NCBI GenBank assembly: GCA_903916255.1
Contig: CAIWVW010000143.1
Location: forward strand, 12,589 to 76,588
Direction of reading: 5' to 3'
DNA: 64,000 bases
Source of the DNA: an uncultured Bacteroidota bacterium
GTDB lineage: Bacteria > Bacteroidota > Bacteroidia > JABEUT01
A program made the translations under genes and the position numbers. The notes under the pieces are model-generated. The model worked only from the letters and a program-made list of their open reading frames with translations, was not told the origin of the DNA and searched no databases. This document shows positions 12,878 to 49,434 of the stretch, in pieces. The first letter of the stretch is position 1; every line of letters begins with the position of its first letter.

Positions 12878-12907
12878 TCATAAGTAATTATATATCTTTA
12901 CTTTAAG

Positions 12908-12979
12908 TGCCCCCGGCGAGAATCGAACTCACATCAAAAGTTTAGGAAACTTCTATTCTATCCATTGAACTACGGCGGC
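12908..12979 (-). tRNA. tRNA-Arg (anticodon CCT)
   Basis: Reverse complement GCCGCCGTAGTTCAATGGATAGAATAGAAGTTTCCTAAACTTTTGATGTGAGTTCGATTCTCGCCGGGGGCA folds as a cloverleaf. D-arm GTTC/GAAT, anticodon loop TTCCTAA, T-arm GTGAG-TTCGATT-CTCGC, discriminator A. Confidence 0.75.
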
Positions 12980-32674: not shown

Positions 32675-33811
32675 TTACGGTTCAGTTTTAACCGCCTCAA
32701 ACCGGTTTTTAAGCCTGAGGAATGGGCTTTCAAAGAAGCGGAACGAAATAACTGAAACTATAATGGTGAATCCAAAAGTCAGCAGGAAATAGACTATATT
32801 CATGTATATGCCCGATAGGTCGTGGCCAAATATTTTTTCGGTAAGGGTGAGGCATAAAATCCTGAATATGGCGCCATATAAATACATTCCATAGGATATT
32901 TTACCCAGGTAATTCATCCATTTATAATTAAGCCTTAAAATAGATTTGGGATTAGCCGCAAGGTTAATAATAACGAAACAGAACAACACCGAATAAAACT
33001 CAAATTCAATGTAGGGAATTCGGACATTCAAGCATACAAGCAAAAGTATAAGCATATAAACAGCCCACTGAATATCGCGCCTGAACAGGAAAGGAAGGAT
33101 TTTCTTTTTATCGGAAACCACCAGCGAAGCACCTATGCCGCCTATAGCCATACAACTTAACCGGTAGAAAGAAATTATTTTTTGAAAATGCCTGAACCAA
33201 GGAGAAAGGTGCAGTACCCGGCACATCACAAAGTAACCGTTGCGGAACAATATCACTGCTACTGTAATAATTATAAATAGTTGTATATATTTTTTGGTTC
33301 TTTTTAATATTAACGGTTCAAAAATATAGAACACCTCCTCTACCCTCACCGACCAGGTAGCTCCTATTGCACGCATTTTCATTCCATAGGGTGGCAAAAA
33401 GAGTATACACAGAATAAAGTCGAAATATTTATAGGGCGAATCAAGCTGCAATTCATCAATCCCCCATAATCTCCCTAAGTATGGAAACAGGAAAAAACCC
33501 AACAGGATAATAAGGAAATAGAGCGGCCATATCCTTAAACACCTGCGGGTATAATATTTCCGGATGTTAATGTTGCCTGTATCTTCTTTTTCCTTCAGCA
33601 ATAAATAACCTATAAGGAAACCGCTTAATACAAAAAATAATGAAACATCCACTCCGCCAAGGGGCAGGTAGTGTTTCACCCAGGCAATCGGCTCCTTTCC
33701 GCTGGTCACCTTCAATTCTTCCATATGAAGGACAAGGATAATAAATGAACCAACAAACCTCAGCCCATCGAGGTTTGGGAAATGCACTTTGCCTTTTACC
33801 GGTTCATTCAT
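32675..33811 (-). CDS. Membrane O-acyltransferase, acyltransferase family 3 (OafA/NolL-like). Cluster paralog 1.
   Basis: 378 aa, about 10 TM. N-terminal NLDGLRFVGSFIILVLH matches the acyltransferase-3 signature. Paralogous to 41696..42865. Confidence 0.8.
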   Translation of the reverse strand: MNEPVKGKVHFPNLDGLRFVGSFIILVLHMEELKVTSGKEPIAWVKHYLPLGGVDVSLFFVLSGFLIGYLLLKEKEDTGNINIRKYYTRRCLRIWPLYFLIILLGFFLFPYLGRLWGIDELQLDSPYKYFDFILCILFLPPYGMKMRAIGATWSVRVEEVFYIFEPLILKRTKKYIQLFIIITVAVILFRNGYFVMCRVLHLSPWFRHFQKIISFYRLSCMAIGGIGASLVVSDKKKILPFLFRRDIQWAVYMLILLLVCLNVRIPYIEFEFYSVLFCFVIINLAANPKSILRLNYKWMNYLGKISYGMYLYGAIFRILCLTLTEKIFGHDLSGIYMNIVYFLLTFGFTIIVSVISFRFFESPFLRLKNRFEAVKTEP

Positions 33812-33839
33812 ACCTTGACAAAACTACTAAAAACAGTAA

Positions 33840-34931
33840 ATGCAAGCCGAAGAAGTGAATATGAATATATTTGTCGCGTTATTTTCAATAATGCAACCAA
33901 GCAAACCTATTTCGGCGGAAGAAATAAAAAAGATTGGCTCCATACCTATGAACTTTGTGGTAGGTAAGGAACGTTCAGGCACTACCCTATTGCAGGTAAT
34001 GTTGAATACACACCCTAACATTATTGCTCCGCCTGAAACAAGGTTCCTCATGCTGCTTTCATCACGTTACGGCAAAGTAAAAAAATGGACCGAGCCTATA
34101 ATAACGAATTTCTGCAATGACCTTTTCCGGGAGAAATTATTTTCTAACTTCTGGAAAGTGAATAAAGAAGAATTGCGCAGGTATTGTATGGCAGCAAAGG
34201 ATTTTATAACCTATCCGCTTATATGCAAAATAGTTTTTTACCTTGAAAATCCGCAAAAAACGGTTCAGTTATTTTTTGATAAAAATCCTATTTATTATTA
34301 TTTTCTGCCGGAGCTGAATGAACTGTTTCCTGAAGCAAAATATATCCACATTGTACGTGATTACAGGGCAAATATTGTGAGCCACCGCCATGTATTTACC
34401 ATTAAACAAAGCGCCGATATTTCTTTCAGATGGACCAAAGTGAACCAGCTTATTGAAAAAGCCAAAAGCATATATCCGCAAAAATTCTTCACGCTGAAAT
34501 ATGAAGCGCTGGTGAGTGATACCGCCAATAGTCTGCAAGAAGTTTGTACTTTTTTAGGAGTGCCTTTTGAAGAAAAAATGGCTGCGGAACATACTTCCGG
34601 CATTTACGATACATTCAATTCTAACATAAAAGAAGGATTCCGTAAAATTCATGGCAATGTTTTCAAGCCGATCACTTCATCCTATGTGGATGAATGGAGA
34701 ACAACGCTTACCCCGGAAGATATTTATACGGCTGAAAGCGTAGCAGGAAAATATGCCGAAAAAATGTATGATTACGAAATGACCATGCCTGAAAAATCAG
34801 CATCCATAGGCTCTTCGGTCACTACTAAAATGAAATTGAAATACTTTATAATCCGGAAAATATACCGGGTAGCATTGAAAAATCCCTGGCTTTATTTTAA
34901 AATTCGGACCTATGTCTGGAGGTCGTTTTAG
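33840..34931 (+). CDS. PAPS-dependent sulfotransferase (Sulfotransfer_3-like). Cluster paralog 1.
   Basis: 363 aa. 5'-phosphosulfate-binding loop GKERSGTTLL. 3'-phosphate motif HIVRDYRANIVS. Paralogous to 40510..41679. Confidence 0.75.
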   Translation: MQAEEVNMNIFVALFSIMQPSKPISAEEIKKIGSIPMNFVVGKERSGTTLLQVMLNTHPNIIAPPETRFLMLLSSRYGKVKKWTEPIITNFCNDLFREKLFSNFWKVNKEELRRYCMAAKDFITYPLICKIVFYLENPQKTVQLFFDKNPIYYYFLPELNELFPEAKYIHIVRDYRANIVSHRHVFTIKQSADISFRWTKVNQLIEKAKSIYPQKFFTLKYEALVSDTANSLQEVCTFLGVPFEEKMAAEHTSGIYDTFNSNIKEGFRKIHGNVFKPITSSYVDEWRTTLTPEDIYTAESVAGKYAEKMYDYEMTMPEKSASIGSSVTTKMKLKYFIIRKIYRVALKNPWLYFKIRTYVWRSF

Positions 34932-35686
34932 CCAATCCTGAAAAGGTTATATACCGGTTTCATCACATAAATTACACCCAAAATAAAACCAAATAAAATG
35001 GTTTTTACAAACACGGGCATTTTGGCAATCACATTAATTTTATGATACAGATATGAAACATGCCTTGTGAGTATAAAAGCGCAAACTAAATTCTTTTGCT
35101 TTAAAAATTCGGGCCTGATAAAATCCATAATAATAACGATGCGCCGCTTGTCCGTATCGTTCCAGGCACCATGTTTGTATGCATCATTAAATATTATCCA
35201 CTTGCCTTCTTCCCAGTTTTTCTTTTCAGCATTCACAATAAGCCCGCAATCGGGGAGCTTACCGGGTATTTCAACGCCAAGATGGCAACGGAGCATCGCG
35301 TTGGTATCTCCGGTATGTTCCGCTAATGTAGAATGTGGCGCCAATTGACTGATTGAAAGTGAAACATAACCGGGAACTTGCTTTAGGTAAGCAGCCGTTT
35401 TAGGACACTTCTTTTTAAATTCATTGGAAAGTTTCAGGCCCCAAAAAAGGAAGACAATAACACTCCATCCATTATTAATATCGATGTTTTCATATACGGC
35501 CTTATTAGAAAGGAATTTACTATCCTTTTCCTTTACAAAAGAGGCAACCTCCCCTTTCAGTTCATCCCACTGATTTTCTATTTCAACAAGTGGTTGATAG
35601 TGCTTAGTATCGTAGAACCAAGGCTCATTTCCGGGATAGGGGCGCATGCTGGATGCATACCAAATATGGTTCTTATTCTCCGGCAT
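34928..35686 (-). CDS. Aspartyl/asparaginyl beta-hydroxylase-family Fe(II)/2OG oxygenase (LpxO/OlsC-like) with C-terminal membrane anchor
   Basis: 252 aa. HSTLAEHTGDTNAMLRCHLGVEIP...WEEGKWIIFNDAYKHGAWNDTDKRRIVIIMDF matches the Asp_Arg_Hydrox pattern. Hydrophobic C-terminal helix. Overlaps the sulfotransferase stop by 4 bp on the opposite strand. Confidence 0.65.
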   Translation of the reverse strand: MPENKNHIWYASSMRPYPGNEPWFYDTKHYQPLVEIENQWDELKGEVASFVKEKDSKFLSNKAVYENIDINNGWSVIVFLFWGLKLSNEFKKKCPKTAAYLKQVPGYVSLSISQLAPHSTLAEHTGDTNAMLRCHLGVEIPGKLPDCGLIVNAEKKNWEEGKWIIFNDAYKHGAWNDTDKRRIVIIMDFIRPEFLKQKNLVCAFILTRHVSYLYHKINVIAKMPVFVKTILFGFILGVIYVMKPVYNLFRIG

Positions 35687-35692
35687 ATGTTT

Positions 35693-36787
35693 TTATGCAG
35701 GATTCGGTTTAGCTTTCAGTACTTGCTCTTTTTCCGATTTTTCTTTCATGTAATTTTTCAGCTCGCCTGCTTCAGCCAGGTGAATGAGATTACTGTCTTT
35801 TTTGAGCAGTTTATAATACTTCCAGATAGGTGGATGGAAAGCGCACATATCCAAAAACATATAAAAAGGAGTCAGCTTTAAAGCGTATAACGGCGCGGCC
35901 CAGCGATAGCCCATACCAATGGCATCGGTCGGGTTTTTAATAGCATGCCAGTAGTGAGGGGGATTCCAAAGAATATCACCCGGTTTCAGGTCAGCTGAAT
36001 ATCCGTCGATATATTTATACAATTCATACGGAGGGCTGTAATCAGGGGCAAAGGGGTCGAATGGCAAACCGTTCTTACGGTTAGGAGCATTGCGGTAAAT
36101 ATTCCGAACCGGATTCGGGTCAATAACCATGGTATAATACTGGGGGTATAAAATCCAATTCTTTTCTCCCCACACCTGTATGAAAAGATTTGGCGGATTA
36201 GCATTGTGCAGAAAAGAGCCACCTCCCTTACCACCAATGAAAACCTGAAAACAATCGAAAAAAGAAAACTTGTTTATTTTATCATGCAGCCATTTATAAT
36301 CCACGTCCTTAATATGCTCGGGATGCTTATCCAGCAAAGGATAAAAACGAAAATATTTCCCGCCACCAGCCTGTATATTCTCAATAACTTCGCGCAAGGT
36401 GCTGGCTTCATAATTTTTCATATTTTCCTGTGTAGCCATAAGGGCCTCATCATCTCCATGAAGTTCCTTGAAATAATCCAGCGACCATTTTTTCACACAA
36501 TCCCAATCTTTGGCTGCGCCATCAAAAATTACCGGAATGCCTTTCTTTACATAATAATTCAGGAACTCTTCTTTGGTTAAATCAGAACGCCTTTCCATCG
36601 GAATAATTTTTCCTTCGCCGCTTGCTTTAAGGGTTTTTGTAAGGTTCTGATAAAATCTCCTCCTGCGTTTGCCAAGCACTTTGAAAACCCTGTCTCTGCC
36701 GAAAAAATGGTCCATAAACTGGTAAAACCCATATTCCAGCCGCTGACTTGCTTTAATGTTTCTTCTGAATGGAGTTGCTCTACTCAT
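35693..36787 (-). CDS. Cupin_8/JmjC-like oxygenase homologue, paralog P1. Metal motif HNA...H, with the carboxylate replaced by Ala.
   Basis: 364 aa. Cupin_8-type N-terminus (KKGIPVIFDGAAKDWDCVKKWSLDYFKELHGDDE). The codons cac-aat-gct (H-N-A) were read directly as the complement of 36200-36208. Distal His in YWHAIKN. Lys-rich C-terminal tail. Confidence 0.7.
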   Translation of the reverse strand: MSRATPFRRNIKASQRLEYGFYQFMDHFFGRDRVFKVLGKRRRRFYQNLTKTLKASGEGKIIPMERRSDLTKEEFLNYYVKKGIPVIFDGAAKDWDCVKKWSLDYFKELHGDDEALMATQENMKNYEASTLREVIENIQAGGGKYFRFYPLLDKHPEHIKDVDYKWLHDKINKFSFFDCFQVFIGGKGGGSFLHNANPPNLFIQVWGEKNWILYPQYYTMVIDPNPVRNIYRNAPNRKNGLPFDPFAPDYSPPYELYKYIDGYSADLKPGDILWNPPHYWHAIKNPTDAIGMGYRWAAPLYALKLTPFYMFLDMCAFHPPIWKYYKLLKKDSNLIHLAEAGELKNYMKEKSEKEQVLKAKPNPA

Positions 36788-36806
36788 GATTTACTTTTAT
36801 AAAATA

Positions 36807-37895
36807 TTAAACAGAACTAACTTCTAAGTTTTTAATTTTTTGCTGTTTTTCCTGTTCTTCCTTTTCTTTCAGATAGCCGTCCAACTTGCCCGATTCGGCC
36901 AAGCGAACAAGGTTAGTATCTTCAATATATAATTTGGCCGATTTGAATATAGATGGGTTCCTCACGAACAAGTCCAGGAAGGCATACAGGGGCGCTAATT
37001 TCAACGCGTATGGATATGCTACCCAACGATATCCCACACTAATGGAATCAGTTGTATTTTCTACCGTGTGCCACGAAAAATTCGGGTTAAATAGAATATC
37101 ACCGGGTTTCAAGTCGGTTTCCAGCCAGTTGATATATTGGTATTCGGGATAGGTTTCAAAATCGGGCTTAAACGGATTAAAAAGTTCATTGCCTTTCACA
37201 GCAGGGCTTCGGTATAAGTGTTTTGCCGGGTCGGGATTAAGAACCATTGTATAATATTTCGGGTAAATAATCCATTTTTTTTCGCCATATACCTGAACAA
37301 AAAGATTGCACTGATTTTCCATATGAATAGGCGTAACCGAATTCATGCCGCCAATAAATACTTGCCATGCCTCAAACCATGTGTAAGGGTTTCTGCGCTC
37401 CAGCAGCCATTTGTAATCGAAATCTTTAATGTGCTCGGGGTGCCTGAACAGCAATGGATAGAAACGGTAATACTTTCCGCCACCCGAACGGATATTATCG
37501 ATTACTTCGCCCAGCGTAGTTGTTTCATAAAGTTCCTTTAGCTTATGGTTGGTAAGCGCAATTACGTCATTCCCGTGAAGTTCTTTAAAATATTCGGGAG
37601 ACCATTTCTTTACACAATCCCAATCATTGGCAGCGCCTTCCATAACAACAGGAATTCCTTTGGCCCGATAGTGGTTTTTAAATTCTTCCAGGCTCAGGTT
37701 TTTTCTTCGTTCCACCTGTATTGCATTTCCGCGGCCATTTTTTATCAAGTCGGCCATTAATTTTTCACGGGCGGCTTTCCGGCGTTTTCCCAAAATCATG
37801 TTTACCCTGCCTTTACCCAAAAACTGGTCGAGAAACTGAAAGACTCCGTATTCGAAGCTTTTAGGCGTAATAATATTTTTTTTAGGGTCAATCAT
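36807..37895 (-). CDS. Cupin_8/JmjC-like Fe(II)/2OG oxygenase, paralog P2. Canonical HxE...H.
   Basis: 362 aa. The PIHMENQCNLF codons were confirmed in the DNA (about 37318-37340). Distal His in SWHTVEN. Lys-rich tail. Confidence 0.7.
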   Translation of the reverse strand: MIDPKKNIITPKSFEYGVFQFLDQFLGKGRVNMILGKRRKAAREKLMADLIKNGRGNAIQVERRKNLSLEEFKNHYRAKGIPVVMEGAANDWDCVKKWSPEYFKELHGNDVIALTNHKLKELYETTTLGEVIDNIRSGGGKYYRFYPLLFRHPEHIKDFDYKWLLERRNPYTWFEAWQVFIGGMNSVTPIHMENQCNLFVQVYGEKKWIIYPKYYTMVLNPDPAKHLYRSPAVKGNELFNPFKPDFETYPEYQYINWLETDLKPGDILFNPNFSWHTVENTTDSISVGYRWVAYPYALKLAPLYAFLDLFVRNPSIFKSAKLYIEDTNLVRLAESGKLDGYLKEKEEQEKQQKIKNLEVSSV

Positions 37896-37903
37896 TACTT
37901 CCG

Positions 37904-38995
37904 CTATTTCATCGTTTCGGTTACCTTCACTTTAGGAATTACTATACGTCCTTCAGACTCTTTGCGGTATTTATCCAGTTTGCCCCGCTGGGCAATTAAA
38001 AGCACATTAATATCCTCTTTAAACAATTTAATAACCTTCCAAATGGGGGGTTTGGTTGAAACAAAATCGAGGAACATATAAAGCGGAGCGGTTCTAAACC
38101 CTACAAAAAGATTGAACCAGCGATAGCCCACACCTATCGAATTGCTGGTATTTACAACAGTATGCCAATAGAAGGTTGGGACCCACAATACATCGCCGGG
38201 TTTTAAAATAGTTTCGTAATGGTCGATATACTTGTATAATTCATAAGGTGCATCGTACTTGGGATTGAACGGATTAAATCCGCCACGCTCGGGTGTTACC
38301 TGCACGCTGCGGTAAGCAAAACGCACAGGCTTCGGGTCAAGTATAGAAGTATAATAGGGTGGGTATAAAATCCATTTCTTTTCACCGTAAGTTTGAACGA
38401 ATAAATTGCCGCGGTTTTCAATATGCAGGCCTGTTGTCGTATCCTTTCCGCCCATCATTACGCGGAACTCTTCTATCAGGGTATTTTTATTTCTTCTTTC
38501 GCGAAGCCAGCCGTAGTCAAAATCCTTTATATGTTCAGGATGCCTGCTAAGTAATGGATAAAAACGGTAATATTTTTTTCCGCCACCCTGAATATTATCC
38601 ATGATATCGGCAAGGGTCATTATTTCAAAGTTCTTTTTGTCTTTATCGTCCAGCATGGCCACTTCATCGGTTCCATGCAAATCTTTAAAATACTCGAAAG
38701 ACCATTTCTTTACACAATCCCAATCATTGGCAGCCCCTTCCATAATAACAGGGATGCCCTTTTTAAGGTAATTCTTACGAAAATCTTTTAATGAGAGGTC
38801 AGTCCTGCGTTCTATTTCAATAGCCTTTCCATCACCACTCTTTCGGAGTGTTTCTTGCAGCCGCTTATAGAAATTCTTTCTGCGACCACCTAAAAGCTTA
38901 ACCATACGTTCACGACCAAAGAATTGGTCAAGGACCTGATAAACGCCATATTCGAATCGCTGGCCAGGCTTAATATTTCTTTTGTAGGTTTCCAC
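37904..38995 (-). CDS. Cupin_8/JmjC-like Fe(II)/2OG oxygenase, paralog P3. Canonical HxE...H.
   Basis: 363 aa. GLHIENRGNLF. YWHTVVN. Confidence 0.7.
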   Translation of the reverse strand: METYKRNIKPGQRFEYGVYQVLDQFFGRERMVKLLGGRRKNFYKRLQETLRKSGDGKAIEIERRTDLSLKDFRKNYLKKGIPVIMEGAANDWDCVKKWSFEYFKDLHGTDEVAMLDDKDKKNFEIMTLADIMDNIQGGGKKYYRFYPLLSRHPEHIKDFDYGWLRERRNKNTLIEEFRVMMGGKDTTTGLHIENRGNLFVQTYGEKKWILYPPYYTSILDPKPVRFAYRSVQVTPERGGFNPFNPKYDAPYELYKYIDHYETILKPGDVLWVPTFYWHTVVNTSNSIGVGYRWFNLFVGFRTAPLYMFLDFVSTKPPIWKVIKLFKEDINVLLIAQRGKLDKYRKESEGRIVIPKVKVTETMK

Positions 38996-39132
38996 TATCC
39001 TTGCCCTGTTTTACCTGCAAATATAGGAATTATTGGGTTTAGAGCCATCTGCTTACGGTGTAAGTTGATTATTTTATAGTTTTACCGACAATAAGCAGGA
39101 AAGTTAAATATTTCAAGGGTTTTGAAACAAAA

Positions 39133-40464
39133 ATGAGGTTTTTAGCAAATATTATTTCGAAATTCTTCAAAAGCGAGGAAGACCGGAAAAGATTGTATAA
39201 AATAGTTATACCATCTTTCATCATACACTTTTTCGCAGCCATACTCGCACTTACCTTTATGTTCATAATGACGCGGAGCCTTGGTTCAAAGCGTTATGGG
39301 CTGTTTACATATTCTTTCAGCATTGTTTTTATCATTGTTAATCTTGCCACCTATGGTATTTGCGTATTGGCCGTAAGGGAAACCCCTTCTTTACTGGCCA
39401 AAGGTAAAAAGGCACTTTGGAAAGGGTTGCACAAATGGTCGGTTAAGTTATTGGTGCTGATTTCCATGGCATTTGCGTTAGCAGTTGCCACTTTTATCAC
39501 AATTTCAACATTTTACCTGCATATTCTGAAAGAAACAGCCTATACCATCCCCTTGCTTTTGGCATTGTTAACTGTACCGTTTTATGGGTTAATGAATTAC
39601 TATGCTTCTATCCTTCGCGGACAGCAAAAAATTGTGCTTTCCTTATTGCCCGACAATATTGTAAAACCGGTTATTTTCCTGTCATCCATCGGGTTAATAT
39701 ATGCCATTACCCGGAAATTTACGCTGCCCGATGCTATCTTAATGAATGCCCTGTCGTTTGCCGGAGCAGCCGTTTTCGCCATGGTAGTATTTTATAAAAC
39801 CACCCTGCTGAAAGATACCGTTGCAGAATATGATAAACCACATTGGAGAAACTCCCTGAAACCTTTCTTTTTGTTTATGATTATAACCAGCATCAATTCA
39901 CGGATGGATATTCTTATGCTGGGTTTTTTAAAGGAATCTTCGCAGGTTGGTATTTACAGCGTGGCGGATATGATAGGCTCAAAGGTGACTTTATTTTTAC
40001 TGATAATGAACCAGGTTACAGCAGCCTCCATAGCCCGGATGCACAGCATGGATGAAAAAGAGAAGTTGCAAGACTTGGTTACCAAAACCAGCCGCTGGGT
40101 ATTTATCATTACTTTGCCAGTATTCCTTTTTATTGTAGTTTTCCGCAAATGGATAATGGCCTACTTTGGCGCTGATTTCGACAGCGGGCAAACAGCTTTG
40201 CTTATTATAGCCAGCGGACAAATAATTAATATCGCGTTCGGGCCGGTGGGCAATTTTGCTTTGATGACGGGCAATCAGCGGTATCCTATTATTTTCACTT
40301 CCATTAATATCGTTATTAATCTAACCCTGAATCTTATTCTTACCCCTACGTTGGGTATAAACGGAACAGCCATTGCAACAACTTGTGCCATAGTTACATG
40401 GAACACCGGTATGTTTTTAACCATACGCAAGAAAACGGGTATTCGCACCTGGATTTTCGGATAG
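39133..40464 (+). CDS. MOP-superfamily flippase (Wzx/polysaccharide-biosynthesis-protein-like, 12-14 TM)
   Basis: 443 aa, entirely polytopic. Its length and topology fit Wzx/MATE-like exporters. Confidence 0.55.
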   Translation: MRFLANIISKFFKSEEDRKRLYKIVIPSFIIHFFAAILALTFMFIMTRSLGSKRYGLFTYSFSIVFIIVNLATYGICVLAVRETPSLLAKGKKALWKGLHKWSVKLLVLISMAFALAVATFITISTFYLHILKETAYTIPLLLALLTVPFYGLMNYYASILRGQQKIVLSLLPDNIVKPVIFLSSIGLIYAITRKFTLPDAILMNALSFAGAAVFAMVVFYKTTLLKDTVAEYDKPHWRNSLKPFFLFMIITSINSRMDILMLGFLKESSQVGIYSVADMIGSKVTLFLLIMNQVTAASIARMHSMDEKEKLQDLVTKTSRWVFIITLPVFLFIVVFRKWIMAYFGADFDSGQTALLIIASGQIINIAFGPVGNFALMTGNQRYPIIFTSINIVINLTLNLILTPTLGINGTAIATTCAIVTWNTGMFLTIRKKTGIRTWIFG

Positions 40465-40509
40465 TAAATTTGCGGGATGCAATTTGCGGAACTGATTCCG
40501 GTGTAACAA

Positions 40510-41679
40510 TTGAAATCACTCAATTCAGGATTTTGTATTATGTTTGAATGGTTATTACTATTTCATCTTTTTCAACCTATGAGCGAAACACCTAATACAT
40601 ATCCTACTAAGCCTCTTACTGCAGCCGACATTGAGTATATTAAAACTATACCCATGATATTTATTTTAGGAAGGGAACGCTCGGGAACCTCATTGCTTCA
40701 GAACCTGCTCGATTCGCATCCCAATATTATAGGGCCGCCCGAATCAAAAATCATTGCAGTGCTTGCTCCTAAATTCGCCCCTATTAAAAGATGGACAGAA
40801 GCCAATATCCGCGAATTTGCCGAATTGCTATACATCGAACCTATGTTCACCAATTTCTGGCACTTGGATAAAGAACAACTTACAAAAAACCTTTTATTGG
40901 CCAAGGATAGCGCTACTTATGAACTCTTATGCAAGATAGTTTATTATCACCTTCGTAAAGACAAGGAAAAAATCATTCTTATTTCCGATAAAAACCCAAG
41001 TTATATTCTTCATATAAATACATTGCTGGATATATTTCCAGACACCAAGTTTGTACATATTATTCGGGAACCACGCGATAATATTTACAGCCAGATGAAG
41101 GCTTTCAACGCAAAGAATACCATTTTCAGTGCACAAAAGTGGTTGGGATTTAACCAGCTTGTCGAAAGAAAAAAGAAAAAGATGCCGGAAAAGTTTTACA
41201 CCATTATTTATGAAAATATGGTGACTGAAACAGAAGACATCATGAAAGGATTGTGTGCATTTTTAAAGGTTCCTTATAGCGAAGCTATGATTCAAAATGT
41301 TTTTCCGGAATGGCTCAGCGCCCATTTGGAACGTAAAGGCAATGTAGACAGGAAAAACATGGTTCATACCGGGTTATTGGCCCCCATCAACACATCAAAT
41401 GTAGGCAAGTGGAAAAATAAATTAAGCGCCTATGACCAGGCGGCAACAGAAGCCATAACAGCCGATTTCGCAAAAAAGACGTATGGATATGATATTTCGA
41501 TTGACCCGAATTCTAAAATCAAAATATCAGGATTTAAAATTTTAAAAGGCAAGTGTCTTTATTATCTCTGGCAGGCATTTACACAGGCCAGGTATAAATC
41601 GTTTGCGTTTAATTTAATGTATTCGAAAAGAAAACAAAAGAAGAAAGGGAAGGATTTACCTATGTGGGAATATTTTTAA
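40510..41679 (+). CDS. PAPS-dependent sulfotransferase. Cluster paralog 2.
   Basis: 389 aa. GRERSGTSLL and HIIREPRDNIYS motifs. About 45% identical to the 33840..34931 product over the core. Confidence 0.75.
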   Translation: MKSLNSGFCIMFEWLLLFHLFQPMSETPNTYPTKPLTAADIEYIKTIPMIFILGRERSGTSLLQNLLDSHPNIIGPPESKIIAVLAPKFAPIKRWTEANIREFAELLYIEPMFTNFWHLDKEQLTKNLLLAKDSATYELLCKIVYYHLRKDKEKIILISDKNPSYILHINTLLDIFPDTKFVHIIREPRDNIYSQMKAFNAKNTIFSAQKWLGFNQLVERKKKKMPEKFYTIIYENMVTETEDIMKGLCAFLKVPYSEAMIQNVFPEWLSAHLERKGNVDRKNMVHTGLLAPINTSNVGKWKNKLSAYDQAATEAITADFAKKTYGYDISIDPNSKIKISGFKILKGKCLYYLWQAFTQARYKSFAFNLMYSKRKQKKKGKDLPMWEYF

Positions 41680-41695
41680 AAAAATACTCCTTGTT

Positions 41696-42865
41696 TCATG
41701 TAAATTTTGTTTTGAGTTTCAAAAAACCTTTTTCAAAGAACTCATACGAAATAATTGCTGTGATGATTGTAAAAATAAGGGTGCTGGCATAAAGCACTAC
41801 GTTCATCTGCCATCCGGAAACTTCCCGTTTAAATATACTTTCCGTCATTTGAAGGGAGAGTATTCTCAATATCGGGTGATACATATATAATCCATACGAA
41901 ACCTTTCCCAGATAATTCATCCATTTATAATCAAGACTAAGTATGGAACGTGAATTAGTAGCCAGGTTAACGATTATTACCATGAAAAATACTGAATACA
42001 TTTCATAAAACACACTTGGAAAACCTTCTTTTGCAATAGGCTTTACCCCAATTCTGAGCAACAGTAAACTTATTGTTATTACATAAGTAACCCATTGAAC
42101 ATCCTTCCGGTAAATAAAATGGAGTATTTTATTTTTTTCAAAAATCACCCAATAAGCGCCAATTCCGCCTATGGCCATGCAACTGACGCGATATTGCATT
42201 ATTACCCCACGGGCAAAACGGAAAAGTGTATTGTGCAATTCTTTCCATGAAAAGAAATCATTACCCAGAAACAATGCGTTTCTTACAAATAGCACCAGTA
42301 CCACAACAGAAAGAAATATCCACAGATATTTTTTTGTAATTTTCAATACTATCGGCCAGCAGATATAAAAGAACTCCTCTACTCCTACTGACCATATCGG
42401 GCCAATGGTTCGCGGCAAACCTGAGGTGCTTCTTACAAATGGGCTGAGAAATAATAAAGTGGCAAAAAAGAAAGGCCAGAAATGCTTATATATATTGGAA
42501 GAGTAATCTTCGGTGAACCAACTTATATGGGGAAGCACAAAAAAACCGGCCATAACAATCAGAAAATAAAGCGGCCATATCCGGAGCGTTCTCCGGGTAT
42601 AGTATGATTTAAGATTTATGGTACCTGTAGCCTTTTTCTCTTTCAGCAATAAATAGGTAATAAGAAAGCCGCTGAGCACAAAAAACAAACTTACATCCAT
42701 ATTTCCTATAAGGCTGTAATATCTTAATGGCGCAAGTGTCTCCCTGTGATTAATGAACTTAATATCCTCAATATGGAAAATGATGATAATTAAGGAACCT
42801 ATAAACCTTAGCCCATCTAAATTTGGAAAATAATTTTTTCTTCGTGAATAGTCTTTCTCCATCAA
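41696..42865 (-). CDS. Membrane O-acyltransferase family 3. Cluster paralog 2.
   Basis: 389 aa. NLDGLRFIGSLIIIIFH. About 55% identical to the 32675..33811 product. Confidence 0.8.
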   Translation of the reverse strand: MMEKDYSRRKNYFPNLDGLRFIGSLIIIIFHIEDIKFINHRETLAPLRYYSLIGNMDVSLFFVLSGFLITYLLLKEKKATGTINLKSYYTRRTLRIWPLYFLIVMAGFFVLPHISWFTEDYSSNIYKHFWPFFFATLLFLSPFVRSTSGLPRTIGPIWSVGVEEFFYICWPIVLKITKKYLWIFLSVVVLVLFVRNALFLGNDFFSWKELHNTLFRFARGVIMQYRVSCMAIGGIGAYWVIFEKNKILHFIYRKDVQWVTYVITISLLLLRIGVKPIAKEGFPSVFYEMYSVFFMVIIVNLATNSRSILSLDYKWMNYLGKVSYGLYMYHPILRILSLQMTESIFKREVSGWQMNVVLYASTLIFTIITAIISYEFFEKGFLKLKTKFT

Positions 42866-43091
42866 AAAAGATTAAAGAGTTTACAGGTAAATGCAAAAGC
42901 AATTTAACTTTTAGACTCTGTCTTCTTCTGAATGTAGCTTGGCTTTCACGATGTTTAATGTTTTTTTAACCCGATATTAATTTAGTTTTAATTCGGTTTT
43001 AATTCCAATTTAATAACACACCCTTCTTGTTTGGCAATAGAGTATTATTCCACCATTACTAGAAAATTTATGTGTAAAACCCCGATACTAA

Positions 43092-44183
43092 TTATACCGC
43101 GGCCTTCACTTCAACCTTTTTCAGCTTATCCCGTTCCGCTTTTTCTTTGAGGTAATTATCCAACTGGCCCGATTCTGCCAAGTGTACAAGGTTGTTATCC
43201 TTTTTCAAAAGCTTCCACGATTTCCATATGGGCGGATGAATAGCCAGCATATCGAGCAGCATATATAATGGCGCTATTTTAAAAGCATAAAACGGGTCTG
43301 TCCAGCGGTATCCAACACCAATAGAATCGGAAGCATTTTTTACCGTATGCCAGTAAAACGGAGGATTCCAAAGTATGTCTCCCGGTTGAAGGCTTACGGA
43401 ATAGCCATCTATATATTTATACAACTCATTCGGCGGGCTATAATCCGGGCTGAACGGGTCGAAAGGCATATTATTTTTCCCTCTGAAAGGAGCGTTCCTA
43501 TATACATTTCGAACCGGGTCGGGGTCAACAATCATCGTATAATATTGAGAAATCAAAATCCAGTCTTTTTGCCCGTAAGTCTGAACAAAAAAGTTAGGCG
43601 GATTGGCATTATGAACATAAGAAATGCTGTCTTTCGGCCCGATAAAAACCTGAAATGCTTCAAATAGTGAAAACTTGGTCTTCCTGTCAAGCAACCATTG
43701 GTAATCAAAATCCTTAAGATGTTCAGGATGTCTGTCTAATAAAGGATAAAACCTGTAATATTTCTTCCCACCTCCTTTAATATTATCAATAACCTCCCTC
43801 AACGTAATTGCTTCGTAGTTATTCATGTTTTCCTGCGTTGCCATTACTATTTCATCATCGCCATGCAATTCTTTAAAATAATCAAGCGACCATTTCTTTA
43901 CGCAATCCCAATCTTTGGCGGCCCCTTCCAGCACCACAGGGATTCCTTTCCGCATGTAATGGTTCTTGAACTCTTTGAGGCTGATATCTTTTCTTCTTTC
44001 TATAGGATATATTTTACCCTCTCCGCTTTTCTTAAGGGTTTCCAGTAAGTTTCTGTAGAATTTTTTCCGGCGCTTGCCAAGCATTTTAAAAGTTCTTTCC
44101 CTTCCCAGAAAATGGTCGAGAAACTGGTAAATGCCATATTCAAAACGTTGGCTGTTTTTTATATTTCTTCTGAAGTCACTCAT
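43092..44183 (-). CDS. Cupin_8/JmjC-like oxygenase homologue, paralog P4. Motif HNA...H.
   Basis: 363 aa. YVHNANPPNFF. YWHTVKN. Closest to P1. Confidence 0.7.
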   Translation of the reverse strand: MSDFRRNIKNSQRFEYGIYQFLDHFLGRERTFKMLGKRRKKFYRNLLETLKKSGEGKIYPIERRKDISLKEFKNHYMRKGIPVVLEGAAKDWDCVKKWSLDYFKELHGDDEIVMATQENMNNYEAITLREVIDNIKGGGKKYYRFYPLLDRHPEHLKDFDYQWLLDRKTKFSLFEAFQVFIGPKDSISYVHNANPPNFFVQTYGQKDWILISQYYTMIVDPDPVRNVYRNAPFRGKNNMPFDPFSPDYSPPNELYKYIDGYSVSLQPGDILWNPPFYWHTVKNASDSIGVGYRWTDPFYAFKIAPLYMLLDMLAIHPPIWKSWKLLKKDNNLVHLAESGQLDNYLKEKAERDKLKKVEVKAAV

Positions 44184-44201
44184 TTTACTGCAATTTTAAA
44201 T

Positions 44202-45308
44202 TTACACTGCGGCTTTAGCTTTCAAGGTTTTTTCCTGCTTTTTAGCTTCATCTCTTTCGGCTTTCTTTTTCAAATAATCTTCCAACTGCCCTGTTTCGGC
44301 AAGATAAATTAAGTTGGCATCCTTGCGAACCATTTCACTACCCTTCCATATGGGAGGATTCCTTGCGCAGAAATCGAGCAACATATAAAGAGGGGCTATC
44401 TTTAAAGAATATAACGGAGGAATCCAGCGGAAACTTACGCCAATTGAATCAGTCGGGTTTTGCACACAATGCCAGTAATACGGCGGCAACCATAACACAT
44501 CACCCGGCCTTACTGTAGCTTCAAGGGTATCGATGTATTTGAAGAGTTCATATGGCCTTTCATAGTTGCCCGGCTTAAACGGGTCGAACGGGCCCTTATC
44601 CGTACGCATAGGTGCATGGCGGTAAACATTCTTAACCGGGTCGGGGTCCAAAACCATAGTATAATAGGGTGGATATAAAATCCATTTCTTTTCCCCATAT
44701 ACCTGTAAAAACATATTGCAGGAACAGGCATTATGCAAGCCCGTTGCGGTTCCCGCGCCGCCCATAAATACCTGGAATGCTTCGAACCAGTTGATACGGT
44801 TTTTGTGCTTCAGAAGCCAGTTATAATCAAACTCCTTAATATGCTCCGGATGCCTATCCAACAAAGGATAGAAGCGATAATACTTCCCCCCCCCCGAACG
44901 CATATTATCTATTACCTCCCCAAGCGTAATTGTTTCATAAGGATATCCTTCCTTTTGGAGTTGGACGAGCAAAATTTCATCATCGCCATGTAATTCTTTA
45001 AAATATTCAAATGACCAATCTTTTACACAGGCCCAATCTTTGGCAATACCTTCCATAACCACCGGAATACCCTTTCTTAAGTAATGGTCGCGGAATTCCT
45101 TTATACTTAAATCTTTACGTCTTTCTATTTGAACTGCCTTGCCGGGACCGCTTTGTTTAAGGGTTTCCGTCAGATTTTTATAGAACTTTCTGCGTCGGGT
45201 ACCGAATAACTTAAACATCCGCTGACGCCCAAAAAAATGGTCAAGAATTTGGTAAACACCATATTCCAACCGCTGGCTCCGCTTAATATTTCTTTTATAG
45301 TCACTCAT
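44202..45308 (-). CDS. Cupin_8/JmjC-like oxygenase homologue, paralog P5. Motif HNA...H.
   Basis: 368 aa. GLHNACSCNMF. YWHCVQN. Lys-rich tail. Confidence 0.7.
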   Translation of the reverse strand: MSDYKRNIKRSQRLEYGVYQILDHFFGRQRMFKLFGTRRRKFYKNLTETLKQSGPGKAVQIERRKDLSIKEFRDHYLRKGIPVVMEGIAKDWACVKDWSFEYFKELHGDDEILLVQLQKEGYPYETITLGEVIDNMRSGGGKYYRFYPLLDRHPEHIKEFDYNWLLKHKNRINWFEAFQVFMGGAGTATGLHNACSCNMFLQVYGEKKWILYPPYYTMVLDPDPVKNVYRHAPMRTDKGPFDPFKPGNYERPYELFKYIDTLEATVRPGDVLWLPPYYWHCVQNPTDSIGVSFRWIPPLYSLKIAPLYMLLDFCARNPPIWKGSEMVRKDANLIYLAETGQLEDYLKKKAERDEAKKQEKTLKAKAAV

Positions 45309-45429: not shown

Positions 45430-46434
45430 GTGGGTGCTTTCATTAAAGCTATAAGCTATTATTTGCCTGAAAAAATTCTGAATAATGAAGAATTGTCACG
45501 CATATTCCCCGAATATACTCCCGAAGAGATTTTCAGGCGCACAGGCGTGAAAGAAAGGCGAATAGCTGCTGACGATGAAATACCCTCTGATTCAGCAGTT
45601 ACAGCTACGGCCAAATTCTTTGAAGAACATCCGCATGTTAAGAAAGAAGATATAGATTTTCTTATTTTCACCACTGAAATGGTTGACAGGCGCGGCCCGG
45701 CAACAGCTTGCATTTTGCAAAATAAACTAGGGCTGCCAACTACCCTTGGAGCTATTGATATTCCTATGGGTTGTTCGGGTTTTATTTATGGATTAATGGT
45801 AGCTAATTCCCTTATTACAACAAAAGTCGCAAAAAATATATTATTTCTGACTGGAGATGCGGCTACGAAAGTAATCCACCCGAGAGACCATGAATTACGG
45901 ATGATTTTTGGCGATGCAATGGCAGTAACGCTTATCAGCGAAACTGAAAACAGCGGTATTGGGGGTTTTGTTTATGGCACCGATGGCTCCGGAGCTCCTA
46001 ATTTAATTGTGGAAGGATGTTGCGGAGCCGAGAAACCTACCCGCGAATGGCTTGATAAATATAGTGATGCAGGAGGAATGGCTTACGGCATATTTAGCAT
46101 GAAAGGGCCTGAAGTTTTAACTTTCTCATTACGCAAAGTACCACCCTTGGTAAAAGAAACGCTTGAAAAAGCTAACTTAACCATGGACGATATTGACCTT
46201 TTTGTATTCCATCAGGCAAGCGGATTTATCTTAGAGGTGTTGAGAAGGAAAATGAAAATTCCGAAAGAGAAATTTTTTACTAATCTTGAATTTATTGGTA
46301 ACACCGTAGCTGCAACAATTCCATTAGCTTTGTACGATGCGGTGAAAGAAGGCCGAGCAAAAAAAGGCGATAAGGTTTTGATTGCAGGATTCGGGATTGG
46401 CTATTCCTGGGGAGCAACAGTTATAACAATTTGA
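45430..46434 (+). CDS. FabH-family 3-oxoacyl-ACP synthase III-like condensing enzyme (copy 1), GTG start
   Basis: 334 aa. Cys-His-Asn triad in the contexts GCSGFIYG, FHQASG and GNTVAATIPLAL. Confidence 0.8.
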   Translation: MGAFIKAISYYLPEKILNNEELSRIFPEYTPEEIFRRTGVKERRIAADDEIPSDSAVTATAKFFEEHPHVKKEDIDFLIFTTEMVDRRGPATACILQNKLGLPTTLGAIDIPMGCSGFIYGLMVANSLITTKVAKNILFLTGDAATKVIHPRDHELRMIFGDAMAVTLISETENSGIGGFVYGTDGSGAPNLIVEGCCGAEKPTREWLDKYSDAGGMAYGIFSMKGPEVLTFSLRKVPPLVKETLEKANLTMDDIDLFVFHQASGFILEVLRRKMKIPKEKFFTNLEFIGNTVAATIPLALYDAVKEGRAKKGDKVLIAGFGIGYSWGATVITI

Positions 46435-46695: not shown

Positions 46696-47751
46696 ATGGC
46701 TTCCTTTTCAATAAATAACGTAAGCATTAAAGGTATTGCAGGAGCTGTACCGAAAGAGGAATTATCCAATTGGGATTATACCCATATTACCGAACAAGAA
46801 AGGAAACTCCTGATTAAAACTACCGGTGTTGAAAAGCGCAGGATGGTTGGGAAATCTGGAATTACTACAACTGATTTATGCAAAGCAGCCGCTGAAAAAC
46901 TACTGGAAGCAACTAACACTTCCAAAGACGATATTCAGATTTTAATTTTTGTTTCCCAAACGCCCGATTACTTTCTGCCCGCCAGCAGCATAACATTGCA
47001 AAACAGGCTTGGCTTGCCCAAAACCTGCATGGCATTCGATATTAATTTAGGTTGCTCCGGATATGTATATGGACTGTCAGCTATATCATCATTAATAAGC
47101 GTAGGTAAATTCAAAAAAGCCCTTTTATTGTGCGGTGATATTTCTTCTGCCGGCCCTCCGGAGGAAGATAAAAGCGTATTCCCGCTTTTTGGAGATGGCG
47201 GCACTGCAACCCTTTTAGAATACGATGAAACCGCCGCTACCATGCATTTCAGCAACCAGAGTGACGGTTCAGGATATGAAGCCATAATAGTAAGGGAAGG
47301 TGGTATGCGCAAACCATTTACGGTGGATTCATTCACGATGGTGGAAAAGGAAAAAGGCATTTCCCGCGCCAGCCGCAATTTGGAATTAAACGGAATGGCG
47401 GTATTTAATTTTTCAGTTACAGAGGTACCTAAAAATATTGCGGAGTTCTTCAGCACGACCAATACAGGTCCTGATTCCTATGATTATTTTGTAATGCACC
47501 AGGCCAATTTACTGATGAATGAAACCATCCGGAAGAAAATGAAATTCCCTCCGGAAAAAGTGCCTTATACATTGCCTAAATTTGGCAACACCAGTTCTGC
47601 CTCCATACCACTAACAATAGTTTCCGAACTGCATGATAAAGTTGCAGGGGAAGTATCATGGCTGCTTTCAGGGTTTGGTGTTGGCTTATCATGGGCAACA
47701 GTTTCGCTGAAAACAAAAGATTTGATTTGCCCTGAAATTGTAGAATTATAG
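46696..47751 (+). CDS. FabH-family KAS III-like condensing enzyme (copy 2)
   Basis: 351 aa. GCSGYVYG, MHQANLLM and GNTSSASIPL triad contexts. Confidence 0.8.
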   Translation: MASFSINNVSIKGIAGAVPKEELSNWDYTHITEQERKLLIKTTGVEKRRMVGKSGITTTDLCKAAAEKLLEATNTSKDDIQILIFVSQTPDYFLPASSITLQNRLGLPKTCMAFDINLGCSGYVYGLSAISSLISVGKFKKALLLCGDISSAGPPEEDKSVFPLFGDGGTATLLEYDETAATMHFSNQSDGSGYEAIIVREGGMRKPFTVDSFTMVEKEKGISRASRNLELNGMAVFNFSVTEVPKNIAEFFSTTNTGPDSYDYFVMHQANLLMNETIRKKMKFPPEKVPYTLPKFGNTSSASIPLTIVSELHDKVAGEVSWLLSGFGVGLSWATVSLKTKDLICPEIVEL

Positions 47752-47756
47752 AAAAT

Positions 47757-48506
47757 ATGTCTACCCCTTTTCATCTTCATAATAAAACGGTACTTGTAAC
47801 GGGGGCCTCTTCCGGCATCGGAAAACAAGTTGCTATTTCTTGCAGCGCTATGGGCGCAAAAGTGGTAATTACGGGAAGGGACGAAAAACGGTTAGCGGAA
47901 ACATTTTCAGTATTGCAAGGTGAAGGACATTCCCAATTTGTTTGCGATTTGATGGATGAAACCCAACGCAATAATTTATTCGATACCATTCCTGCAATTG
48001 ACGGATATGTGCATTCGGCGGGAGTTGTAGCACCAGTTCCGGTGAAGTTTATTGCCGAAAAACATATACGTTACATTATGGGTGTAAATTTTGAATCGGC
48101 AGTGCTTTCAGTTGCGCGTTTACTAAAAAATAAAAAGTTGAACGATGCCGCCTCCTTAGTATTTTTTTCATCCATATCTGTAAGCTATCCCTATGCGGGA
48201 GGAGCTTTATACACAGCATCCAAAGGGGCAATAGAAGCCTACAGCAAAAATTTAGCGATTGAAATTCTCCCCAAGAAAATGCGCAGCAATGTGGTTGTTC
48301 CCGCAATGGTTAAAACGCCCTTGTACGAAGAAACTAAAAACCAATCGATGTACCGAAGCGCGGAAGAATATGAAAGTAAATATCCACTTGGATTAGGCAT
48401 GCCGGAAGATGTGGCGAATGCCTGCATCTATTTATTATCCGAAGCATCCAGATGGGTAACAGGCATTAATCTTACGCTGGACGGAGGCTTCAGCATTGTT
48501 AAATAG
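47757..48506 (+). CDS. Short-chain dehydrogenase/reductase (FabG-like 3-oxoacyl-ACP reductase)
   Basis: 249 aa. TGASSGIG cofactor motif. YTASKGAIEAY is the YxxxK active site. Confidence 0.8.
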   Translation: MSTPFHLHNKTVLVTGASSGIGKQVAISCSAMGAKVVITGRDEKRLAETFSVLQGEGHSQFVCDLMDETQRNNLFDTIPAIDGYVHSAGVVAPVPVKFIAEKHIRYIMGVNFESAVLSVARLLKNKKLNDAASLVFFSSISVSYPYAGGALYTASKGAIEAYSKNLAIEILPKKMRSNVVVPAMVKTPLYEETKNQSMYRSAEEYESKYPLGLGMPEDVANACIYLLSEASRWVTGINLTLDGGFSIVK

Positions 48507-49434
48507 AATGGGCGGAACAATCAAAGATATTTCAATAGTAGTTCCGGTATTTAATGCCGCTCCGGCACTTATTGCCCTACAGGCTGAAATAGATAAAGTA
48601 ATGGCCCTGGAAGGGATTACATACAAACTTATTTTGGTAGATGACGGCTCGGAAGATAAAAGTTGGGAAGTTATCAGGGCCATAAAAAACAATCATCCGG
48701 AAAAGGTTACTGCCATCCGGATGTCGAAAAACTACGGACAGCACAATGCCATTTTTGTTGGATTCCGCAATGCCAAAAGTAATTATATAATTACTATCGA
48801 TGATGACCTGCAGCATCCGCCCGATGAAATACCGCGACTAATTAAATGCGCCGAAGAAACAGATGCAGATTTAGTTTATGGTATATCAGGCGCATACAAA
48901 AGGTCGTTACTGCGCAAGTTTTTGCGATGGGGGTTTCGCCTTTTAAACCGCATGACAGCCGATGATAAAGAGGGTTCCGCTTTCCGCATTATAAAAAAAG
49001 GATTGGTAGATAAACTGGTAACGCACGACCAGGAATTTGTCTTTATAGATGAGCTCGCAAATTGGTACACCGAAAAAATAGAGTATATAAAAGTGCGTCA
49101 CGATAAATCACATGTAGATAAATCGCGTTATCCTTTTTCACGCTTAAGCAAGCTTTATTACAATCTTGTATTTGGCTACAATGCTTTCCTGTTAAGGTTA
49201 ATCACATTTTTAGGATGTACCTCATCCGCCATTTCCATCCTTATCGGGGTTTTCTTTATTATCAAAAAAATATTTTTCCATGTGCAGGTTGGTTTCACCG
49301 GCATTGTAGTAAGCATTACCTTCACCGGTGGTGTTATTTTATTAAGTATCGGCATCATTGGTGAATATATGCGCCGCATGTATAATATTATGAATGCCAA
49401 ACCGCAATCTTCTGTCAGCGAAATATTAGAGTAG
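48496..49434 (+). CDS. GT2 polyprenyl-phosphate glycosyltransferase (DPM1/GtrB/ArnC-like) with two C-terminal TM helices
   Basis: 312 aa. ISIVVPVFNA...LVDDGSEDKS...TIDDDLQHPP. C-terminal hydrophobic hairpin. Overlaps the SDR gene by 11 bp. Confidence 0.8.
   Translation: MLNRMGGTIKDISIVVPVFNAAPALIALQAEIDKVMALEGITYKLILVDDGSEDKSWEVIRAIKNNHPEKVTAIRMSKNYGQHNAIFVGFRNAKSNYIITIDDDLQHPPDEIPRLIKCAEETDADLVYGISGAYKRSLLRKFLRWGFRLLNRMTADDKEGSAFRIIKKGLVDKLVTHDQEFVFIDELANWYTEKIEYIKVRHDKSHVDKSRYPFSRLSKLYYNLVFGYNAFLLRLITFLGCTSSAISILIGVFFIIKKIFFHVQVGFTGIVVSITFTGGVILLSIGIIGEYMRRMYNIMNAKPQSSVSEILE

Follow-up and report, generated by a model that had tools for sequence, protein, structure and literature searches.

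Cupin_8/JmjC oxygenase paralogs with and without the iron-binding carboxylate in a Bacteroidota gene cluster: three candidates for a new structural class of halogenating enzymes

Five Cupin_8/JmjC paralogs in two blocks

The window analysed here, a stretch of 64,000 nucleotides from an uncultured Bacteroidota bacterium (contig CAIWVW010000143.1 of assembly GCA_903916255.1, positions 12,589 to 76,588), is ordinary Bacteroidota chromosome with 40% GC, valS, metG, tamB and genes for type IX secretion system (T9SS) cargo. It holds five paralogous genes, P1 to P5, for Cupin_8/JmjC proteins, a family of Fe(II)/2-oxoglutarate (2OG) oxygenases in which a facial triad, HxD/E...H, holds the iron. Two of the paralogs have the complete triad (HxE) and three have Ala at the place of its carboxylate (HxA):

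35693–36787, minus strand: P1, Cupin_8/JmjC 2OG oxygenase without the carboxylate ligand, H194-N-A196...H281 (open reading frame, Pfam match and codons)
36807–37895, minus strand: P2, Cupin_8/JmjC paralog with complete triad, H191-M-E193...H276 (codons at 37317–37325; E193 aligns with JMJD5 D323)
37904–38995, minus strand: P3, Cupin_8/JmjC paralog with complete triad, H191-I-E193...H278 (codons at 38417–38425; in the HxE clade)
43092–44183, minus strand: P4, Cupin_8/JmjC paralog with HxA, H191-N-A193...H279 (codons at 43605–43613)
44202–45308, minus strand: P5, Cupin_8/JmjC paralog with HxA, H192-N-A194...H280 (codons at 44727–44735)

All five are intact open reading frames (ORFs) of 362–368 amino acids (aa) that match Pfam Cupin_8 (PF13621) with 77.6–95.3 bits for a cut-off of 27.4 (E values of 1e-21 to 1e-27); no NCBIfam model matched P1 or P2. 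Proteins identical to those of the window occur in metagenome-assembled genomes (MAGs) of uncultured Bacteroidia, annotated just as 'cupin-like domain-containing protein'. A first-pass annotation made from the sequence alone had already listed the five ORFs with their motifs, HNA in P1, P4 and P5, HME in P2 and HIE in P3, and had read the P1 triad as cac-aat-gct on the complement of positions 36200–36208; all the ORFs and motifs are present at those places, and direct reading of the DNA gave the same codons, CAC AAT GCT. The distal His that it reported also occurs in each paralog, within the motifs YWHAI, SWHTV, YWHTV, YWHTV and YWHCV.

Other parts of that description needed revision. Rather than a single tandem run, the genes form two blocks, P3-P2-P1 and P5-P4, which lie 4.1 kb apart and are separated by genes for a Wzx/MATE-like flippase, a sulfotransferase and an Acyl_transf_3 protein. 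Within the first block the spacing is tight (8 bp between P3 and P2, 19 bp between P2 and P1), and a gene for an AspH-like hydroxylase follows 6 bp past P1. The mutual identity of the paralogs, put at about 40–60%, is 50–69% in pairwise comparison. Their first 60 residues are indeed basic, with 13–16 Lys and Arg against 4–7 Asp and Glu, but the C-terminal tail, described as Lys-rich, is a mixture of Lys and Glu.

The metal site, its conservation and its history

In phmmer alignments, the P1 segment 'fLHNANppNlfiQvwGeK' and the P2 segment 'pIHMENqcNlfvQvyGeK' pair with 'pLHQDpqqNflvQvmGrK' of human JMJD5, and P1 H194, A196 and H281 fall on JMJD5 H321, D323 and H400. These three residues are the metal ligands of JMJD5, whose K336, Y272 and S318 bind the C5 carboxylate of 2OG and whose N327 lines the pocket (PMC9712658). 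P1 K209, Y145 and S191 correspond to K336, Y272 and S318, and P1 N200 also corresponds to a 2OG-site residue; the distal His and the 2OG-binding Tyr, Ser/Thr, Asn and Lys are retained in all five paralogs. The full facial triad of JmjC/Cupin_8 proteins is present in P2 and P3 and lacks its carboxylate in P1, P4 and P5, where the position is occupied by Ala. The alignment, a check that the first-pass annotation had proposed, bears out its placement of this Ala. Two PDB entries, 2ilm and 3d8c, outscored wild-type FIH when compared with P1 and scored below wild-type FIH when compared with P2, as would be expected if chains 2ilm_A and 3d8c_A are, as we take them to be, the D201A and D201G variants of FIH.

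The fold, for which structure prediction had been suggested, is that of JmjC proteins. P1 to P5 belong to PF13621 on Pfam score, and an AlphaFold2 model of P1 (74 homologues in the input; predicted local distance difference test, pLDDT, 94.3; predicted template modelling score, pTM, 0.91) has JMJD5, JMJD7, FIH and TYW5 as its best Foldseek matches, with E values of ~1e-17. H194 and A196 are at the end of a strand in this model, N200 and K209 start the next two strands, and H281 lies in a later one. From these correspondences, P1, P4 and P5 are predicted to bind iron through two protein ligands only, the proximal and the distal His.

When 1.84 billion cluster representatives were searched exhaustively, 121 clusters matched at E<=1e-30 and 439 at E<=1e-10; the distant relatives so obtained also have the N-terminal helices of the window's paralogs. 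We compared a close set of 247 homologues with a distant-family alignment of 135 sequences (129 representatives, the five window paralogs and JMJD5). H194, N200, K209, H281 and Y145 are invariant in the close set, where position 191 is Thr or Ser in 246/247; the metal- and 2OG-binding positions are likewise kept in at least 83% of 134 distant representatives, and His, Lys and His are retained in 134/135 sequences of the distant-family alignment. At the triad position Ala or Gly is the majority state, with Ala in 194 of the close homologues, Glu in 31, Ser in 16, Gly in 3 and Asn in 3, and with Ala in 82, Glu in 18, Gly in 17, Asp in 9 and Ser in 4 sequences of the wider alignment. The residue pattern of the window is not due to chance: the same states recur in hundreds of homologues. 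No acidic, His, Asn/Gln or Cys residue is kept solely in the class with HxA, HxG or HxS, either in the close or in the distant family, so that nothing at the sequence level replaces the missing ligand.

Orthologs of P1, P4 and P5 in related MAGs evolve with a ratio of nonsynonymous to synonymous substitution rates (dN/dS) of 0.015–0.021 (0.021 for P4, 0.016–0.018 for P5); in the other ortholog comparisons synonymous sites were saturated and dN was 0.02–0.2. The triad state is fixed within orthologous groups, and gene orders such as HNA-HNS-HNS-HNA or HNA-HCG-HSN recur across genera. Since the state is fixed for each paralog across genera, the triad site is under selection and does not drift. 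The states HNS, HSS, HCG and HSN are kept in the same gene order across genera in seven loci from Chitinophagales and Saprospiraceae MAGs (L067, L071, L073, L070, L072, L060 and L065). One related MAG has a syntenic cluster whose P4 ortholog (L078:4833-5924) is broken into pieces of 224 and 125 aa; a sequencing frameshift is as likely here as a real pseudogene, and the contig name suggests a nanopore assembly.

In neighbour-joining trees rooted on JMJD5 and built with the triad column excluded, P2 and P3 lie within one HxE clade of 19 representatives, which is the sister of the clade with P1, P4 and P5 and is nested beneath many lineages with Ala, Ser or Gly. The HxE clade fell below at least 11 successive non-acidic sister groups in 100/100 bootstrap replicates, and a purely HxE ancestor common to P2 and P3 was recovered in 69/100. 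Because of this nesting under successive non-acidic lineages, HxA appears to be ancestral in this family and the Glu of P2 and P3 a derived re-acquisition (Ala to Glu), which is the reverse of the derivation of HxA from HxE implied by the first-pass annotation when it proposed a phylogeny. A search seeded with P3 returned about nine HxE-type clusters and then HxA proteins. All loci in which HxE genes were found belong to the window's own lineage; one of them, in another MAG, is a syntenic cluster of five paralogs beside valS and tamB. One nucleotide change suffices to convert Ala into Glu from GCA or GCG, and the residues beside both His co-vary with the switch, HxA and HxE proteins having respectively Asn versus Met, Ile or Ser at position 195, Pro versus Cys, Thr or Asn at position 277, and Ala versus Thr at position 282. 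An apparent second, independent Ala-to-Glu change is seen in P0045 (HVE), inside the P5-like clade.

The gene cluster and its relatives in other genomes

The cluster around the paralogs extends from about 32675 to at least 50129 and comprises, in addition to P1–P5, the following genes, the membership of the last one being uncertain (ACP, acyl carrier protein; SDR, short-chain dehydrogenase/reductase; GT2, family 2 glycosyltransferase):

32675–33811, minus strand: Acyl_transf_3 membrane acyltransferase a, left edge of the cluster (48% identical to copy b)
33840–34931, plus strand: sulfotransferase 1 (Sulfotransfer_3/1; Pfam, NCBIfam)
34928–35686, minus strand: AspH/LpxO/OlsC-like hydroxylase (PF05118) with a 2-His H-T-G motif (Pfam; partial NCBIfam matches to OlsC and LpxO)
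39133–40464, plus strand: Wzx/MATE-like flippase (Polysacc_synt; Pfam)
40510–41679, plus strand: sulfotransferase 2 (Pfam)
41696–42865, minus strand: Acyl_transf_3 membrane acyltransferase b (Pfam)
45430–46434, plus strand: KASIII/FabH-like ketosynthase 1, divergent from P5
46448–46690, plus strand: acidic ACP-like ORF of 80 aa between the KASIII genes (kept in related loci, family c29)
46696–47751, plus strand: KASIII/FabH-like ketosynthase 2
47757–48506, plus strand: SDR/FabG-like ketoreductase
48496–49434, plus strand: GT2, ArnC-like polyprenyl-phosphate sugar transferase
49437–50129, plus strand: GNAT, PseH-like aminosugar N-acyltransferase
50177–52264, plus strand: fused alpha/beta E1 component of a 2-oxoacid dehydrogenase, 695 aa

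The AspH-like product aligns with the HTGpTN...H motif of human AspH, and thus carries the 2-His site native to its family, and has a hydrophobic C-terminal segment; its closest named relatives in NCBIfam are the lipid acyl hydroxylases OlsC and LpxO, and the 3' end of its gene overlaps the convergent sulfotransferase gene by 4 bp. The 80-aa ORF is acidic (14 Asp and Glu versus 6 Lys and Arg), carries an atypical GWGSM serine motif and resembles an acyl carrier protein, although it matched no model in Pfam or NCBIfam. The succession KASIII-ACP-KASIII-SDR would constitute a small dedicated acyl-chain pathway, and the presence of a GT2 and a GNAT implies that the product is more complex and linked to a sugar. 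The fused E1 gene follows the GNAT gene only here and in the closest relatives (L007 and L008), and its protein could supply an unusual acyl starter unit.

Of the two Acyl_transf_3 genes and the two sulfotransferase genes (the latter with 36% identical products), one of each kind flanks each Cupin_8 block (32675–34931 and 40510–42865), suggesting an old duplication of a tailoring module. A precursor peptide of the RiPP type (ribosomally synthesised and post-translationally modified peptide) is excluded as substrate, as intergenic gaps of 137, 226 and 121 bp or smaller leave no room for it. Elsewhere in the window, three genes encode products with type IX secretion C-terminal sorting domains, namely a C10 peptidase with an I69 inhibitor domain, a 368-aa protein and a BNR-repeat protein (4171–6465, 15173–16279 and 55173–56849), and the sole RNA gene is a tRNA-Arg(CCT) at 12907–12979.

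The cluster is conserved across Bacteroidota. Among 75 loci, taken from one genome per species, 26–30 have the KASIII/SDR/GT2/GNAT cassette next to one to four Cupin_8 genes, sulfotransferases occur in 30 and AspH-like genes in 27; five Cupin_8 genes per locus are found in the window's own lineage only. Cultured strains account for three of the loci: Mesonia aquimarina MCCC 1A11700 (L076), Haloflavibacter putidus PLHSN227 (L037) and Acidiluteibacter ferrifornacis S-15 (L056). The window's cassette has its ACP-like gene, but around many family members that occur as single copies no ACP lies within 10 kb.

Other genes recur beside the family. A 546-aa polytopic membrane protein (c7) is encoded directly beside an HxA gene and in the same direction in ~24 loci (e.g., L017:8348-9988; L022, L026, L050), including otherwise solitary Cupin_8 loci, which suggests a conserved two-gene module; it had no Pfam, NCBIfam or PDB match and no homologue in the window. 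A TMTC-like GT-C membrane protein with C-terminal tetratricopeptide repeats, absent from the window, occurs in 23 loci, often near the cluster (L058:14786-16705; as a neighbour in L014, L016, L060, L067 and L071) and near a secreted repeat protein rich in Thr and Ser. Considered with the ArnC-like GT2, this arrangement hints that an acceptor in the periplasm or at the surface receives the cluster's modified sugar. Finally, the distant HxG relative P0150, 38% identical to P1, lies in an apparent operon with the order P450, fatty-acid desaturase, Cupin_8, alpha/beta hydrolase (L080:5772-9931; L081), a different lipid-oxidising context for the same carboxylate-less family.

To judge from the context as a whole, the Cupin_8 enzymes would act on an aliphatic chain carried by an ACP, an aminosugar or a membrane lipid, as indicated by the ACP/KASIII cassette, the LpxO/OlsC-like gene and the P450-desaturase operon of the HxG relative; the product would in turn be sulfated, acylated and exported.

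Possible chemistry and comparison with known systems

The reading that we rank first, tentatively and at somewhat less than an even chance, is that P1, P4 and P5 halogenate an acyl chain. An exogenous anion, with chloride or bromide the likeliest, would occupy the vacant coordination site; once 2OG is decarboxylated, the haloferryl species would abstract a hydrogen from an unactivated carbon of the chain and the halogen would rebound onto the radical. The chain may be attached to the ACP, N-linked to an aminosugar or linked to a lipid, with a different target carbon for each paralog. Hydroxylation at other positions would fall to P2, P3 and the AspH-like enzyme, and the resulting hydroxyls would be sulfated by the sulfotransferases before the product is flipped to the cell surface. 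With their conserved, basic N-terminal helices, the paralogs may dock the acidic ACP or the membrane.

P1, P4 and P5, and the family at large, carry the motif of Fe(II)/2OG halogenases, Ala or Gly in place of the carboxylate with both His and the 2OG site kept. To our knowledge, the characterised natural families of 2OG oxygenases that lack the carboxylate are halogenases (SyrB2, WelO5, BesD, AdeV and DAH types), with AspH as the exception. In addition, since HxE sisters have been retained with co-varying residues beside both His, the HxA and HxE classes probably do different chemistry, which would also be the simplest explanation for the strict retention of a re-evolved Glu beside HxA paralogs. 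On these sequence grounds, P1, P4 and P5 may credibly be put forward as candidates for chlorinating enzymes of a new structural class. The statement of the first-pass annotation that no halogenase had been described in the Cupin_8/JmjC branch holds: a curated halogenase database published in 2026, with 22 NHFe (non-heme iron) entries and four substrate-class profile hidden Markov models (pHMMs), lists none and gives HctB as the single enzyme with a fatty acyl substrate, the main text of its paper has no mention of cupin or JmjC, and our full-text literature searches gave no JmjC/Cupin_8-fold halogenase and no description of this family or cluster.

Several observations weigh against halogenation. 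In the wider family, parsimony gives ~13–14 gains and 4–5 losses of the carboxylate (~18 acid/non-acid switches), and with such frequent switching the scaffold may tolerate either state. Some paralogs have Ser or Asn at the triad site, states that we know from no halogenase. The number of Cupin_8 genes per cluster correlates with that of sulfotransferases in a crude comparison that ignores phylogeny (Spearman 0.45, p ~0.02, n=27; 0.61, n=14), the pattern expected if the Cupin_8 enzymes make hydroxyls that are later sulfated; unlike it, the AspH-like count does not track sulfotransferase number. The title of a 2018 paper by Chaplin and colleagues reportedly states that chloride supports O2 activation in FIH D201G. 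Moreover, AspH, with H679, H725 and a water on the iron, hydroxylates and does not halogenate (PMC13168262; PMC6817910), and FIH D201G, which has the same fold as the window's paralogs, is catalytically viable with two His (PMC6817910). The first-pass claim that loss of the Asp or Glu defines halogenases stands only in part: P1, P4 and P5 do have the motif, but AspH and FIH D201G hydroxylate with two His.

The strongest alternative, which we consider quite possible though clearly below an even chance, is that P1, P4 and P5 are 2-His hydroxylases or other non-halogenating oxidases, with water or a spectator chloride in the vacant site and with hydroxyls that are then sulfated. Besides the two enzymatic precedents, the Ser and Asn variants and the gene-number correlation, it draws on the adjoining AspH-type HxG enzyme, with which 2-His hydroxylation is already in this pathway, and on Iyer et al. 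2010, who surveyed bacterial JmjC neighbourhoods, reported typical HxD/E signatures and predicted hydroxylation followed by sulfation for bacterial dioxygenase-sulfotransferase neighbourhoods. The neutral 2-His site of such hydroxylases may be adapted to an anionic (sulfated or acidic) substrate. Hydroxylation alone gives no reason, however, why a sub-clade should regain Glu and strictly keep it (31/31) beside HxA sisters in the operon, and it runs against the preponderance of halogenases among the natural carboxylate-less 2OG families. In AspH, the water in the vacant site is held by a second-sphere Asp, D721 (PMC13168262), whereas we found no HxA-specific second-sphere acid that could hold it here.

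It is rather improbable that the open site is filled by the sulfate, carboxylate or phosphate of the substrate, or by some other anion, leading to desaturation, epoxidation, cyclisation or pseudohalide transfer. The anionic, sulfated intermediates of the cluster would fit such chelation, as would a highly diverse family that occurs in many contexts and often toggles between acid and non-acid states; on the other side, no precedent in the JmjC fold is known to us and the sequences carry no sign of a particular alternative reaction. The first-pass annotation also raised the possibility of pseudo-enzymes; HxA copies that have lost metal binding would then be scaffolds or substrate carriers and not catalysts. 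This is very remote and can be regarded as effectively excluded. Pseudo-enzymes do commonly arise by loss of a metal ligand, and inactive JmjC proteins exist in eukaryotes. P1, P4 and P5, however, are not decayed, their metal and 2OG residues being conserved and their dN/dS ~0.02; HxA/G is the ancestral and dominant state in hundreds of clusters, many of them single-copy without an HxE partner; and iron can be bound with two His ligands (PMC6817910).

Carried further, the halogenation reading would make P1, P4 and P5, with several hundred relatives, the first radical halogenases with a JmjC fold, and the product of the cluster a polyhalogenated sulfated lipid or glycolipid, a bacterial counterpart of the chlorosulfolipids; this wider proposal we consider doubtful. 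Chlorosulfolipids are polychlorinated alkyl sulfates of chrysophytes and mussels, and our literature searches gave no halogenase or gene cluster for their biosynthesis. They have recently been captured from seawater during blooms, in a study that links them to marine producers by correlation only and discusses no halogenase (PMC13413282). With its several putative halogenases and sulfotransferases, and with carriers among Bacteroidota that include marine Flavobacteriales, the cluster is an obvious, though speculative, candidate for chemistry of this kind.

If the HxA enzymes halogenate, they would represent a fifth, structurally unrelated scaffold among the very few radical C–H halogenases, and the hundreds of natural variants and the HxA/HxE paralog pairs would serve to dissect halogen versus hydroxyl rebound. 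The Ala-to-Glu reversion of P2 and P3 would then be an evolutionary record of a halogenase turned back into a hydroxylase, and abundant Bacteroidota, including marine Flavobacteriales, would be makers of halogenated sulfated lipids, offering a genetic handle on chlorosulfolipid-like compounds. If they hydroxylate instead, they would be the second natural family after AspH in which the facial-triad carboxylate is dispensable, now in the JmjC fold. With either outcome, a widespread, unannotated surface-lipid or glycoconjugate pathway of Bacteroidota would be characterised. We regard the finding as a strong experimental lead, not as a demonstrated halogenase.

Compared with JMJD5, JMJD7, FIH and TYW5, the window's paralogs have the same fold, the same positions of both His and of the 2OG-binding Lys, Tyr and Ser/Thr, and the same HxxxxxN spacing. 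They differ from them by the Ala that replaces the Asp or Glu ligand in P1, P4 and P5, by an extra conserved pair of basic N-terminal helices (residues 13–56) and additional C-terminal helices in all five, and by a gene context that points to a lipid or glycolipid substrate rather than to proteins or tRNA. With the carrier-dependent halogenases SyrB2, CytC3, HctB and CurA-Hal, and with WelO5, BesD and AdeV, P1, P4 and P5 share HxA/G...H with an intact 2OG site and the presence of HxD/E hydroxylase relatives in the family; a possible carrier protein (ACP) and a putative aliphatic substrate would be further likenesses to HctB. Unlike the Fe(II)/2OG halogenases, which belong to PhyH/TauD-like clades, they fall in the JmjC/Cupin_8 branch of the double-stranded beta-helix superfamily and match only JmjC families in Pfam, PDB and Foldseek, with no detectable sequence relationship to the SyrB2, WelO5, BesD or AdeV-type clades.

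The absence of the carboxylate is also shared with AspH, LpxO and OlsC (PF05118), active 2OG hydroxylases with a natural HxG, of which LpxO and OlsC act on lipid acyl chains; P1–P5 do not match PF05118, unlike the product of the adjoining gene at 34928–35686. AspH can bind a pseudohalide elsewhere on its iron, still without halogenation (PMC13168262; PMC6817910), and no class-specific equivalent of its second-sphere Asp was found in the HxA family. A parallel in the same fold is given by FIH D201G and D201A, which lack the same ligand and of which D201G is still active (PMC6817910); those are laboratory mutants of a protein hydroxylase, whereas the state of P1, P4 and P5 is natural, evolved and conserved.

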